Below, one piece after another: positions 42,702 to 46,080 of a stretch of DNA of 64,000 bases (positions are counted from its first letter, which is position 1; every line of letters begins with the position of its first letter). The position numbers and the translations under genes were made by a program. The DNA comes from an uncultured Actinomycetes bacterium (GTDB taxonomy: Bacteria; Actinomycetota; Thermoleophilia; RBG-16-64-13): NCBI GenBank assembly GCA_963718375.1, contig CAVQZD010000005.1, forward strand, positions 652,841 to 716,840, read 5' to 3'. Under the pieces are notes generated by a model. That model did not search any database, was not told the DNA's origin, and saw only the letters and a program-made list of their open reading frames with translations.

Positions 42702-43535
42702 TCAGGCCTTACGCATCTGGCGGCTGCGCTCCATGGCAGCCGCCACGGCATCACTGAAGGCAGACCTGAGGCCTCTACTCTCTAGCAGCGCGGCAGCCCC
42801 CGCGGACAACTGCCCCCCGGCAGTCGCACCCTGCCCATTACTCGACCGCAGCTCGAAGTCTGCATCCGAACTGACCGCAGTCTCCAGAGCGGCCCGCCGC
42901 ACGACGCGACGCGCGTCGGCGCGGCTGAGTCCAGCGGCTACGGCCCCGTCCTCCAGACCCTCCAGAGCCAGCGCCAGGAACGCGGGACTGGAGCCCGAGA
43001 CAGCTGTGAATACGTCGAACAGCTCTTCTGGGAGCGCCTCCGCGATACCAGTCTGACCGAACAGAGCCAATACTCTCTCCAGCAAGGCTGCATCGACGCC
43101 ATCTTCCGCCGCCACCGCTACCGCACCCGCACCCTTTTCTACGGCGAGATTCGGCATAGCCCTGAGCAGTGCAGGACCCGGACCCAACTCATCCCGCAGC
43201 CATTCCAGGGTCAGCCCGGCCATCGCGGAGACCAGGGCTTGGTCAGGACGCGTGATACCGCGCAAGGTGCCGAGCAGGTCTTTGGCATCCTTGGGTTTGA
43301 CCAGCACCACGATGATATCCGCTGCGCCCACCAGTTGTTCGAGCGACTCGGTAGCCGCCACGCTCGGGCCCTTGGCCCCATCCGCCATGCTCGCCTGAGC
43401 GTCCTCGACCAGTCGGTCGACTGAAGGTCGAAAGGTGTCCCACACGAGTAACCCAGCCCGACCCGCGCGCAGCCAGCCCTTGACTAGGGCAGACCCCATG
43501 TTGCCGACGCCTATGACCCCGACAGTGTCCGTCAT
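42702..43535 (-). CDS. proC: pyrroline-5-carboxylate reductase
   Basis: VGVIGVGNMGSAL Rossmann motif and P5CR dimerisation domain. Confidence 0.85.
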   Translation of the reverse strand: MTDTVGVIGVGNMGSALVKGWLRAGRAGLLVWDTFRPSVDRLVEDAQASMADGAKGPSVAATESLEQLVGAADIIVVLVKPKDAKDLLGTLRGITRPDQALVSAMAGLTLEWLRDELGPGPALLRAMPNLAVEKGAGAVAVAAEDGVDAALLERVLALFGQTGIAEALPEELFDVFTAVSGSSPAFLALALEGLEDGAVAAGLSRADARRVVRRAALETAVSSDADFELRSSNGQGATAGGQLSAGAAALLESRGLRSAFSDAVAAAMERSRQMRKA

Positions 43536-44785
43536 CCACCCGAGCTCTCAGCACCGTAGTGCTGACCGATCACGAGGTACGAGAGGTCCTCGCGGTCCCT
43601 GATCACCCGTACGCTTCCGTCCGTTTGCACCAGGATCTCCGCCGGACGCAGCCGCGCGTTGTAGTTGGATGACATCGCGAAGCCGTAGGCGCCCGCGTCG
43701 AGTACGGCCAAGATGTCGCCCAGCGCTACGTCAGGCAGCATGCGCGCCTCAGCGACCAAGTCGCCGCTCTCACATATGTTGCCGCAGACGCTTACTTCTA
43801 CCAGGTCGCGGCTTTCGACATTGCTGCAGACGACCACCTCGTGGTAGGCGCCGTACAACTCCGGACGGATGAGCACGTTGAAGCCCAAGTCCGTCCCCAC
43901 GAAGACGGTGCCGAAGTTCTCCTTGATGGAGTGCACACTGCCCAAGAGCGTCGAACACTCAGCGACCGGATAGCGGCCCGGCTCGATGAGGAACTTGACC
44001 TTCTTGTTGCCGGTGCGCTCCTCCCAATCCGCGAGCACTGCCTCGAACTCCTTGGCGAACTCGTCCAAGGGAAAGCGGTCCTCTTCAGTGTGGCGATAGG
44101 GGACACCCAAGCCACCCCCGAAGTCGATGAGCTTGAGATGGTCGAAGCTCTCGGCTATCTCGAGCAGGCGCTCTATGGCCGCCAGGTAGTTGTGCGGGGA
44201 GAGGAACAGCGACCCGATGTGCATGTTGATGCCTACTATCGTCAGGTCGTACTTCGCGGCCATCCGCTTGAGTTCGGGCAGTTGGTCGTGCGGGGTACCG
44301 AACTTGACCCGGCCCGCGGTGATCACCTTGGCGCTGTGCCCGTCACCGATGTTGGGATTGATGCGCACCACCACCTCGCCACCTGGATTGAGCTCGCCGT
44401 AGTATTCGAGCTGCGAGATGGAATCGATGCTCATGAGGATGCCGCGATCTATCGCGTAGCGCATCTCTTCCTTGGAGACGTTGTTGCAGATGAACAGTAT
44501 CTCCTGCGGCTTGTAGCCGGCCTCCATCGCCAAGAAGATCTCGCCAGGGGACATGGTGTCTACCCTGAGCCCCTCGCTGCGGACGATCTCGAGCAGGGCG
44601 ACGTTGCCGTTGGCCTTCATGGAGTAGTTGACGGCGAAATTGGGGCGCTTCAGAAGACTCTTCAGCTCACGACAGCGGGCGCGCAGGACTTCTTCTTCGT
44701 AGACGTAAAGGGGTGTCCCGAATTCCGCAGCCAGATCACCGGCGAAGTGGGTCCCGAAATACAGACGGTTGTCCTTGATGCGCAC
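43532..44785 (-). CDS. lysA: PLP-dependent Orn/DAP/Arg decarboxylase family 2, most likely diaminopimelate decarboxylase
   Basis: PLP lysine region FAVNYSMKAN. GGG...EPGR and C-terminal CESGD motifs. GTG start with an AAAGGGG RBS. Confidence 0.75.
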   Translation of the reverse strand: MRIKDNRLYFGTHFAGDLAAEFGTPLYVYEEEVLRARCRELKSLLKRPNFAVNYSMKANGNVALLEIVRSEGLRVDTMSPGEIFLAMEAGYKPQEILFICNNVSKEEMRYAIDRGILMSIDSISQLEYYGELNPGGEVVVRINPNIGDGHSAKVITAGRVKFGTPHDQLPELKRMAAKYDLTIVGINMHIGSLFLSPHNYLAAIERLLEIAESFDHLKLIDFGGGLGVPYRHTEEDRFPLDEFAKEFEAVLADWEERTGNKKVKFLIEPGRYPVAECSTLLGSVHSIKENFGTVFVGTDLGFNVLIRPELYGAYHEVVVCSNVESRDLVEVSVCGNICESGDLVAEARMLPDVALGDILAVLDAGAYGFAMSSNYNARLRPAEILVQTDGSVRVIRDREDLSYLVIGQHYGAESSGG

Positions 44786-44840: not shown

Positions 44841-45413
44841 CTAACGCCCGGATATCTGCTCGATCTGAGATGCTGCCTGCCTGAGTACTTCAGCCATCTC
44901 CTTGAGCTTGTCCGGGTCCCCGGCCCCGTCCTGCACTGCCCTCTTCACAGTGTGAAATGACTCATGGAGATCTCTGAGCGTCTCGTCAGACCGGCCGTGC
45001 CGCCCGCCGCCCCATCGAGCGTCCCACCGCTCTCTGTGAGACTCTGCCTTGTCCTTGTGCGTCTCCAAGAAGACCGCGCCGACCTCAGTGATCGAGTAGA
45101 CCTTCTTACCGTCTTCGGTGCTGGCGGCAACCAGGCCCTCATCCTCCAGAGCCTGAAGCGTGGGGTAGATCGCTCCCGGGCTGGGACTATACAGCCCCCC
45201 GGAGGCCTCCTCCATGGCGCGGATGATGTCGTAGCCGTGTCTGGACTTCTCCTTGAGCATGTCCAGTACGGCGAACTTGATGCCCCCTCTAGCTATCGAC
45301 CGCGGCGCTTCGGACAGGGACCCTCGTACGTGCATGCCGCGCGGCCCGGACATGCCTCGGGACCCACGCATGCGCCCTGCGTCGTGCCTGAATCGCCGTT
45401 CGTGTCTCTGCAT
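44841..45413 (-). CDS. PadR-family transcriptional regulator with an Arg/Gly-rich N-terminal extension
   Basis: AGGAGAA RBS 6 nt before the ATG. wHTH IKFAVLDMLKEKSRHGYDIIRAMEE...YPTLQALEDEGLV. Confidence 0.8.
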   Translation of the reverse strand: MQRHERRFRHDAGRMRGSRGMSGPRGMHVRGSLSEAPRSIARGGIKFAVLDMLKEKSRHGYDIIRAMEEASGGLYSPSPGAIYPTLQALEDEGLVAASTEDGKKVYSITEVGAVFLETHKDKAESHRERWDARWGGGRHGRSDETLRDLHESFHTVKRAVQDGAGDPDKLKEMAEVLRQAASQIEQISGR

Positions 45414-45493
45414 ATCCGTTCTCCTCTTGTTTCGCAGGCGGCGCCGGCCTCCGGCACGTCCCCACCCTGTGCCCCGACGTGACCAATACAGGC

Positions 45494-45580
45494 GCCGTGT
45501 CCGTGACCGCCGTGTCCGTGACCGCCGTGTCCGTGACCGCCGTGTCCGTGACCGCCGTGTCCGTGACCGCCGTGTCCGTG
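45494..45580. repeat. tandem repeat, 15-bp unit GCCGTGTCCGTGACC x 5.8. On the minus strand it would encode (HGHGG)n within ORF 45293..45691
   Basis: Directly visible perfect tandem copies. Coding status ambiguous. Confidence 0.8.
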
Positions 45581-45623
45581 CTTTGCTCCGACTTGTTTCA
45601 ACCCGACCTCCAAATATTCATAC

Positions 45624-45641
45624 GATATATCGCGATATATC
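45624..45641. promoter_or_regulatory. 18-bp perfect palindrome GATATATCGCGATATATC in an AT-rich island upstream of the repeat/PadR region
   Basis: Perfect inverted repeat in an AT-rich stretch of a GC-rich genome. Operator-like. Confidence 0.4.
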
Positions 45642-45744
45642 TTATACCATGGGTCGGTATTGTCAAGCGAGTCGATGAGTCCCGAAAACACGAGGCGCCC
45701 GCAGAATCGCGGGCGCCTCGCACTGCATCTGGGGTTGGGTCGTT

Positions 45745-46080
45745 CTAGGCCTTGGCCTTGCGCAGGCCCCAGCGCGCGAGAAAGACGCCCACCGTGATGG
45801 CCCCAAGGGACGTAGCGGCTTCCGCGCAGACCCTAAGCGAGCCGATCAACTGATAGTCAGCGTAGGTAGAGTTGGTCGCGAAATCTTCGGAGGGTATGAG
45901 ATAGAGCAGTATCTGCCCGATGACACCCAGCAGCAAGACGATCAGCCCCACCCATAGGCTCTCGCGCGTCTTCCAGCAGCCCGCGATCTTCTGTGAAATC
46001 TTGCTTGACTCGGCGGGCGCGTCTGCCGCACCCTCGACTGTCCCCTCTTGTGACGTGGCTCCCTCAGCGGCCCTGTCCAT
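45745..46080 (-). CDS. small membrane protein (2 TM), hypothetical
   Basis: Hydrophobic segments. GAGAGGTGG RBS-like sequence upstream. Confidence 0.45.
   Translation of the reverse strand: MDRAAEGATSQEGTVEGAADAPAESSKISQKIAGCWKTRESLWVGLIVLLLGVIGQILLYLIPSEDFATNSTYADYQLIGSLRVCAEAATSLGAITVGVFLARWGLRKAKA

Follow-up and report, generated by a model that had tools for sequence, protein, structure and literature searches.

The 64-kb window analysed here (the whole stretch of 64,000 nucleotides from the genome of an uncultured Actinomycetes bacterium) carries on its minus strand a perfect 15-bp tandem repeat beside a gene for a PadR-family regulator. Our data support the view that this repeat lies in a real, translated small gene, whose product combines a His/Gly-rich tract with a Cys-containing tail and whose 3′ part is shared with the beginning of the PadR gene (Table 1). 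Comparison of the locus with its relatives established the coding status of the small open reading frame (ORF), the dual-coding selection in the overlap, an operator footprint in front of the unit and the homology of the PadR protein to NfeR of Escherichia coli. We consider it rather probable that the locus is an autoregulated NfeR-like unit in which the His/Cys-rich, probably metal-binding module is encoded as a separate, overlapping small protein.

The comparison set consisted of the window and 12 syntenic loci from other metagenomes, chosen among the closest PadR homologues (58–69% identical to the window PadR), giving 13 loci, one of them on a contig cut at its 5′ end. They share the gene order GT4 glycosyltransferase, small membrane protein, PadR and lysA. 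Wherever the 5′ end can be read, which is the case in 12 loci, a Shine–Dalgarno (SD) sequence (GGAGG in 11, GGAGC in one) lies 5–9 nt before a TTG or GTG start codon, which is mostly followed by M-K-H and then by a His/Gly-rich tract. The distance from this start to the PadR ATG is 137–281 nt and equals 2 mod 3 in 12/12 intact loci, so that the tract varies in length with the frame kept throughout. The predicted proteins have 89–157 amino acids, with the window protein in the middle of this range, and contain 12% His and 26% Gly; in the part upstream of PadR, His and Gly together make up 41–70% of residues. In each of the 13 loci the frame crosses the PadR start, shares 115–193 nt with PadR in the +1 register and ends at one common column of the PadR alignment. 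The tail of about 27 residues is nearly invariant (G-V-C-x-G-P-E-A-C-P-G-[RK]-A-A-C-T-[YF]-[ED]-G-P-C-P-K-R-R), its four Cys are present in every locus and their C-x5-C-x5-C-x5-C spacing is found in 12 of 13. About 70 loci of more distant homologues served as a negative control; their +1 frame had no conserved ORF, motif or stop position.

In the window, the product begins MKQVGAK-(HGHGG)5-HGHG and ends GACVGPEACPGRAACTYEGPCPKRRGR before the stop; after MKQVGAK-(HGHGG)5 it reads HGHGACIGHVGAQGGDVPEAGAACETRGERICRDTNGDSGTTQGACVGPEACPGRAACTYEGPCPKRRGR, and ICRDTNGDSGTTQGACVGPEACPGR is an example of a peptide within the predicted product. The first-pass annotation, made from the letters alone, had proposed a GGAGG with a TTG start near 45598 for a short His/Cys-rich protein; the TTG occupies 45601–45599, five nucleotides after the GGAGG (45611–45607), and is conserved. 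The same annotation listed an ATG start at 45691, a base that in fact belongs to a GTG, and this GTG is not a real start because it sits in a terminator-like hairpin upstream of the promoter. The tail, counted there with eight Cys, has seven in this genome, four of them conserved. The predicted overlap with PadR was borne out, although its size is 121 nt rather than 42–120. The proposal that PadR is co-expressed with a His-rich peptide bearing a Cys tail is thereby strengthened as far as comparative evidence reaches, given the conservation of ORF, SD and start in the 12 other loci and the purifying selection in the small-ORF frame. The third frame of the repeat region (TDTAV...) was considered as a gene and rejected, owing to the lack of a conserved start or SD and to stops in several loci.

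Selection in the overlap was evaluated after aligning the PadR genes of the 13 loci by codon. After the small-ORF stop, PadR shows the diversity pattern of an ordinary gene frame, with values of 0.217, 0.166 and 0.484 at the first, second and third codon positions (d1, d2 and d3), whereas in the overlap up to that stop (29 scored codons) the values are 0.373, 0.128 and 0.153. The overlap differs from the rest of PadR with a Mann–Whitney p = 1e-9, and no other 29-codon window in PadR approaches its value. Within the overlap, variation is concentrated at the third position of the small-ORF codons and not at that of the PadR codons. Nei–Gojobori estimates of synonymous and nonsynonymous differences per site (pS and pN) agree with this pattern: over 23 gap-free codons of the overlap, the small-ORF frame has pS 0.445, pN 0.096 and pN/pS 0.22, whereas the PadR frame over 23 codons has pS 0.16–0.17, pN 0.20–0.22 and pN/pS 1.28, compared with pS 0.603, pN 0.193 and pN/pS 0.32 in the rest of the PadR gene. 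Purifying selection is thus detectable in the alternative frame, the mark of an overlapping dual-coding gene pair, and within the Cys motif the small ORF is, by these measures, the frame under selection.

The codons that build the Cys residues and the stop are constrained in the same sense. Where the small ORF encodes its four Cys, PadR has variously Met, Val or Leu, yet in 52/52 cases its codon is NTG with C or T as the next base; all 14 Val codons are GTG (37% elsewhere) and all 10 Leu codons are YTG (56% elsewhere), with a naive probability of 3e-9. The small-ORF stop is made by the PadR codons [AGC]TA-GCN in 13/13 (naive probability 1e-14), with GTA accounting for only 8% of Val codons; in the window it is a TAG (45295–45293) formed by ATA-GCT. 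This conserved stop argues for translation, since without it the +1 frame of the window would run more than 100 codons further. Upstream of the PadR start, where the alignment is uncertain, the small ORF shows d3 0.56 against d1 0.28 and d2 0.31 in its own frame. The first five PadR codons have normal PadR-frame wobble (d3 0.55), indicating that both genes are real and that the constraint changes hands along the overlap. PadR probably tolerates being ‘slaved’ to the other frame because its residues 1–42 are predicted to be disordered.

Same-strand overprinted genes are known from comS inside srfA of Bacillus subtilis and from many viral overlaps. As in those cases, two proteins share one stretch of DNA, the constraint falls mostly on one frame, and the less constrained frame tolerates the overlap in a disordered region. 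In contrast to them, the overlap here is terminal, 115–193 nt long, and pairs a regulator with a peptide that may be its sensor or effector; it has been kept throughout a clade with regulators only 58–69% identical to that of the window, and the dominant frame is the unannotated one.

An alternative explanation is that the two frames belong to one protein, an NfeR-type repressor with an in-frame His/Cys-rich N-terminus, and are separated by a programmed frameshift or by an indel in the assembly. Such extensions do occur in frame in E. coli NfeR and in several distant homologues, and in one locus (L002) a single-base insertion joins the small-ORF tail to the PadR domain, giving the protein P0110. 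That locus, however, is ridden with indels and several of its neighbouring genes are fragmented, whereas the 12 other loci, from different samples and assemblers, keep the frames separate. The PadR ATG is conserved in 13/13; the SD before it was checked in twelve, with L005 and L006 left out. The stop codon is maintained in all loci by rare NTA codons, the first five PadR codons vary in their own wobble position as noted above, no X-XXY-YYZ slippery site was seen on reading the overlap, and the PadR frame upstream of the ATG contains stops in L003 and L085. Because the PadR start and the small-ORF stop are both conserved, we regard a frameshift-fused protein as very unlikely.

A Pfam match to PF03551 (66.3 bits against a cut-off of 27, residues 49–117) places the regulator in the PadR family. 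Hundreds of homologues were found; the closest (58–69%) begin M-[DE]-x-x-E-H, and because they share the same N-terminus, the ATG at 45413 is taken as the PadR start. An AlphaFold2 model built with 20 homologues predicts residues 1–42 as disordered (predicted local distance difference test, pLDDT, <50), followed by a confident winged helix from about residue 43 and C-terminal helices. The signature YSPSPGAIYPTLQALED pointed to E. coli YqjI, now called NfeR, and a comparison with b3071 was then made: BLASTP aligned residues 43–187 with residues 61–206 of NfeR at 35% identity over 148 amino acids (E 1e-25). The match spans the winged helix and the whole C-terminal helical domain, as expected of full-length NfeR/YqjI homologues, and includes the common signature Y-[ST]-P-S-P-G-x-[IV]-Y-P-T-L.

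The two regulators differ in what precedes this shared part. NfeR carries an in-frame N-terminal extension of 55–60 residues (MSHHHEGCCKHEGQPRHEGCCKGEKSEHEHCGHGHQHEHGQCCGGRHGRGGGRRQRFF...) with 22% His, 12% Cys and 23% Gly, whereas the 42-residue tail of the window PadR has four His and no Cys, and the His/Cys-rich sequence is encoded apart from the regulator, by a +1-frame ORF that has an SD, a start and a stop of its own. Blahut and colleagues are said to have reported in 2018 that the Cys/His-rich N-terminus of NfeR mediates the response to nickel. Both systems have a His/Cys/Gly-rich module tied to the regulator and GATATATC-type boxes in the regulator's own promoter region; the Cys pattern, in contrast, consists of CC pairs in NfeR and of C-x5-C here, and NfeR regulates the ferric reductase gene nfeF, whereas no nfeF-like gene is adjacent here. 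NfeR represses nfeF, and excess nickel relieves the repression (PMC7981267, citing Wang 2011 and Wang 2014; PMC9508795). Because NfeR carries a His/Cys-rich extension and nickel releases it from DNA, the small protein is most likely the metal-binding module of the unit.

Many environmental homologues have in-frame tails rich in His, Gly, Pro and Met, a few of them also with Cys. Several (P0064, P0069, P0096, L007 1073–1816 and L017 94–786) have a hydrophobic, transmembrane-like segment, e.g. GKALLLGGPALAGLAFHV, before the His-rich part, which suggests membrane-anchored variants of the regulator.

The operator in front of the unit connects the window to this family. The 18-bp perfect palindrome noticed in the first pass, GATATATCGCGATATATC, is present and consists of two 8-bp palindromic GATATATC boxes with 10-bp spacing; it occurs once in the window even when three mismatches are allowed, and 0/100 shuffled sequences contain it. 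It overlaps the last bases of the −10 element and the expected transcription start. In the syntenic loci a TTGACA/TAAGAT promoter is likewise accompanied by the operator ATATATCRYGATATATCG, which is degenerate in L003 and reduced to a single box in L090. Among 77 homologue loci, 72 have the GATATATC core within 350 nt upstream, at 6.7 per kb against 0.06 per kb in the background (about 100-fold), usually right after a TTGACN −35 element and overlapping the −10. In the nfeF–nfeR intergenic region of E. coli, AGATATATCT is found twice, once beside each gene (L094 4518–4527 and 4748–4757), with 0.01 copies expected. Palindromic boxes in the regulator's own promoter region, a property of NfeR-type units, are thus present, and this phylogenetic footprint argues that the palindrome is probably the operator of the family and that the unit is autoregulated, in line with the earlier suggestion of an operator at this site.

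Across the homologue loci L007–L084, mostly two or three GATAnATC-like boxes with 10-bp spacing were observed 30–300 nt upstream, starting from the −10 of a TTGACN promoter. This arrangement, which E. coli nfeR shares, seems to be an autoregulatory design common to the whole family.

The position of the small ORF between this operator and PadR is also compatible with a purely cis-acting role, as an upstream ORF or leader whose translation, perhaps slowed at the His and Gly codons, controls initiation at PadR, the peptide itself having no function. Runs of His codons underlie the classical attenuation of the his operon, the SD and ATG of PadR lie inside the small ORF, and its weak TTG or GTG start is found in all relatives. 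Several observations speak against such a leader. The C-terminal amino acids of the small ORF are under strong purifying selection while synonymous changes are free, as the pN/pS of 0.22 at a pS of 0.445 indicates, and the stop is fixed 115–193 nt past the PadR start. The leader RNAs of the window and of L004 folded no better than shuffled sequences (z-scores −1.3 and 0.05), no terminator or antiterminator was seen in these two leaders, and Rfam at a permissive threshold gave no match, so that neither a stable structure nor a known RNA family favors attenuation. Behind the small ORF lie PadR, lysA and proC instead of his genes, and with its length of 89–157 amino acids and no RNA structure the ORF departs from the amino-acid attenuation leaders. 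Because the peptide sequence itself is conserved, and not just its translation, we consider a cis-acting leader unlikely.

The tandem repeat can now be placed in this context. Tandem Repeats Finder reported 5.9 copies of a 15-nt period with 100% matches and a score of 176; the array is as described in the first-pass annotation, with the start at 45493, one base before the 45494 given there. The frames described at that time were confirmed, and on the minus strand the three read HGHGG, SRTRR and VTDTA. A second possibility raised in the first pass was a noncoding repeat or iteron array in the PadR promoter. In a wider form of this reading, the repeat would be an array of iterons or protein-binding sites, or mere slippage, in the PadR leader, with an open frame that is accidental in a GC-rich genome. 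Slippage does produce perfect tandem repeats, at 63% GC alternative frames often stay open over long distances, and gene callers call nothing or another frame here, with no called protein homologue. The comparative data nevertheless contradict this explanation, which we find scarcely credible. The relatives share the His/Gly composition, frame, start and stop, but no nucleotide repeat unit; the three-base periodicity of substitutions fits the small-ORF frame; and accidental +1 frames in the outgroup have variable ends and no motif. The repeats of the relatives differ by locus and lie inside the conserved ORF, contrary to what is expected of an iteron array, and because the window repeat is downstream of the promoter, operator, SD and start codon, a role as a binding array in the promoter finds no support.

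The nucleotide repeats of the relatives are imperfect and different from that of the window, with periods that are nearly all divisible by three in the intact loci. Because of these differences, the 15-bp array is, judging from the relatives, a recent in-frame slippage expansion within a conserved low-complexity coding tract rather than a conserved DNA element. The variation of tract length at preserved frame is the outcome that had been named in advance as favoring a coding repeat. In the small ORF of L090 (581–913), an independent perfect repeat of 18 bp × 2.6 at 604–649 encodes SQGPGR, which shows that in-frame slippage recurs in the His/Gly tract.

The small protein itself gave no match in Pfam, NCBIfam or PDB sequences, and an exhaustive phmmer search with the 66-residue tail against 1.84 billion representatives returned only an unrelated repeat protein. 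The profile of the whole small ORF against 5.8 billion clustered proteins was swamped by His/Gly words and gave only P0110; a profile of the tail alone gave no match among protein sequences, and a scan of genome contigs with the PadR protein retrieved one irrelevant locus. P0110 is an artefact of the one-base insertion in L002. The corresponding region (L002 2779–3408) contains many indels amid fragmented neighbor genes, and P0110 could be mistaken for an NfeR-like regulator whose N-terminus is Cys-rich and in frame.

In most loci the stretch from the membrane protein gene to PadR carries no gene call; L085 and L092 have a minus-strand ORF called there, and in L087 and L093 the wrong frame was chosen. 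The small protein is missing from protein databases because gene callers miss its ORF, and for this reason the absence of homologues, suggested in the first pass as a refutation of the coding reading, is misleading: the proposed homology check found no database protein, but orthologues were recovered in DNA. The automatic calls in L087 (2353–2508) and L093 (1380–1508) use the third frame (TGTAPGT...) and are the result of gene finders mis-framing low-complexity, GC-rich sequence.

Taken as an NfeR-like unit with a separate small protein, the locus would work as follows. Transcription would start from the TTGACA/TAAGAT promoter, with the small gene as the first cistron of a two-gene mRNA. Ribosomes initiating at GGAGG-N5-TTG would make a protein of about 100 amino acids, consisting of the variable His/Gly tract, a short linker and the C-x5-C-x5-C-x5-C-PKRR tail, with translation of the last 121 nt running in the +1 frame over PadR codons 1–40. 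PadR would be translated from its own SD and ATG, its 42 N-terminal residues forming a disordered tail, and the repressor would bind the two GATATATC boxes over the −10 element and the transcription start, shutting off its own mRNA. The small protein would bind a transition metal via the (HG)n tract and the Cys4 tail. In one version of the model it would act as a metal buffer or effector that is induced when the repressor leaves the operator; in another it would be a trans-acting sensor partner of the repressor. Metal binding, the identity of the metal and any contact between peptide and repressor are inferred. A more specific form of the model is a split metalloregulator, in which the in-cis sensing module of NfeR has become an independent +1-frame protein that binds metal and then the repressor or its tail in trans, thereby controlling the GATATATC operator; this is a tentative proposal, to which we give distinctly less credence than to the unit as such.

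(HG)n-type motifs are known Ni and Zn ligands, and the Hpn and Hpn-2 proteins of Helicobacter pylori and the tails of HypB, UreE and SlyD are His-rich metal-binding or storage sequences. Like these, the small protein is small or tail-like, of low complexity and likely disordered, and it shares with Hpn-type proteins a His-rich tract of variable length and few Cys. It differs from Hpn-type proteins in having less His (about 12%), Gly as the dominant residue and a four-Cys tail that is conserved and looks ordered; searches of Pfam, NCBIfam and PDB showed no homology, and here the gene overlaps a regulator gene. With four conserved Cys in about 100 residues (4%), it also falls short of metallothioneins, which have about 15% Cys or more in C-x-C and C-x-x-C arrangements.

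Several points count against the interpretation as an NfeR-like metal-responsive unit. All evidence on translation, metal binding and regulation is comparative, the relatives are all metagenome contigs, and the 13 sequences, which are related, were treated as independent, so that the P values given above are naive and ignore phylogeny. Only four Cys are conserved, and the C-x5-C spacing matches no classical metal-site pattern. An alignment of the small ORFs compared by hhalign with the NfeR N-terminus gave no detectable similarity, and the resemblance between the two is compositional and positional. The AlphaFold2 prediction of the small peptide alone had a pLDDT of 44, which is unusable and makes it uninformative. 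A search of the window for further copies of the operator, intended to define a regulon, found none besides 45624–45641, and no nfeF-like ferric reductase was seen among the neighboring genes of the window or of the syntenic loci.

Two routes to the present arrangement can be envisaged from the sequences. The small gene could have arisen by fission of an ancestral in-frame extension, and the artefact in L002 illustrates that a single base is enough to fuse the frames seamlessly. It could also have arisen by overprinting of a PadR tail with periodic Met residues: wherever C or T comes after an ATG, the +1 frame contains a Cys codon, and tails of the outgroup, e.g. ...MRGHGSMPGHGHMHG..., have this six-residue Met period as well.

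Table 1. Features of the PadR locus and its surroundings in the window
Feature	Position	Strand	Basis or remark
Upstream gene, 111-aa membrane protein	45745–46080	−	No family match; ends at 45745
Terminator-like hairpin, 12-bp perfect stem, 6-nt loop	45691–45720	−	Inverted-repeat search; ends upstream gene
Sigma-70-like promoter, TTGACA 45666–45661, 16-nt spacer, TAAGAT 45644–45639	45639–45666	−	10/12 matches
Palindrome GATATATCGCGATATATC, 18 bp, probable NfeR/PadR operator	45624–45641	strandless	Inverted repeat and footprint
Shine–Dalgarno GGAGG of small ORF, 5 nt before TTG	45607–45611	−	Sequence
Small ORF, 102 aa, TTG 45601 to TAG 45293, His/Gly-rich, four conserved Cys	45293–45601	−	Unannotated
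Tandem repeat, 15 bp × 5.9, perfect, encodes (HGHGG)n in frame	45493–45580	−	Tandem Repeats Finder
PadR Shine–Dalgarno GAGGAGAA, inside small ORF	45419–45426	−	GGAG before ATG kept in relatives
Dual-coding overlap of small ORF and PadR, 121 nt	45293–45413	−	
C-terminal Cys motif of small ORF, PadR codons 13–39 in +1 frame	45296–45376	−	
NfeR/YqjI-like PadR-family repressor gene, 190 aa, ATG 45413	44841–45413	−	
lysA	43532–44785	−	TIGR01048, 369 bits, above cut-off; 55 nt after PadR
proC-like gene, after lysA	42702–43535	−	Seen in window

At the promoter, 10 of 12 positions match the consensus, compared with 0.3 such sites expected by chance from shuffled sequences, and both TTGACA and TAAGAT are kept in the relatives. 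The gene directly upstream, in the same orientation in every syntenic locus reaching that far, encodes a conserved small membrane protein of 94–111 amino acids with apparently two hydrophobic segments and no Pfam or NCBIfam match; a hairpin separates it from the small ORF/PadR unit. Downstream, lysA comes next after PadR; its position is unchanged in all relatives with contigs long enough to include it, and co-transcription of the PadR unit with lysA and proC is possible. The 5′ leader also contains a seven-codon mini-ORF, MNIWRSG (ATG AAT ATT TGG AGG TCG GGT TGA, 45598–45621, minus strand), with a stop codon that shares bases with the TTG start of the small gene; the mini-ORF has not been kept in the relatives.

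The suggestion that the source organism methylates mercury is plausible, as signature motifs of both hgcA and hgcB are present in the window. The HgcA cap-helix motif NVWCAAGK is encoded at about 24222 (within 23886–24998, plus strand) and the HgcB ferredoxin motif CIECGAC at about 25154 (plus strand); these motifs lie 20 kb from the PadR locus and do not occur within the 2.5–3 kb flanks fetched around the PadR genes of the relatives. The organism is accordingly referred to as a putative mercury methylator.

The small ORF represents a conserved family of small proteins that has been overlooked by every gene caller and protein database, and its overlap with PadR offers a clean bacterial example of long same-strand dual coding in which the hidden frame, and not the annotated regulator, steers sequence evolution. 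The homology and the shared GATATATC operator link a large group of PadR regulators from the environment, so far uncharacterised, with the paradigm of the NfeR/YqjI nickel sensor, which yields predictions on metal sensing in uncultured bacteria, including the putative mercury methylator studied here. If the split arrangement holds true, the dual-coding stretch of about 120 nt would be a rare case of bacterial overprinting or gene fission, and should the peptide prove to act on the repressor in trans, the unit would represent a new architecture for a metal-sensing switch.

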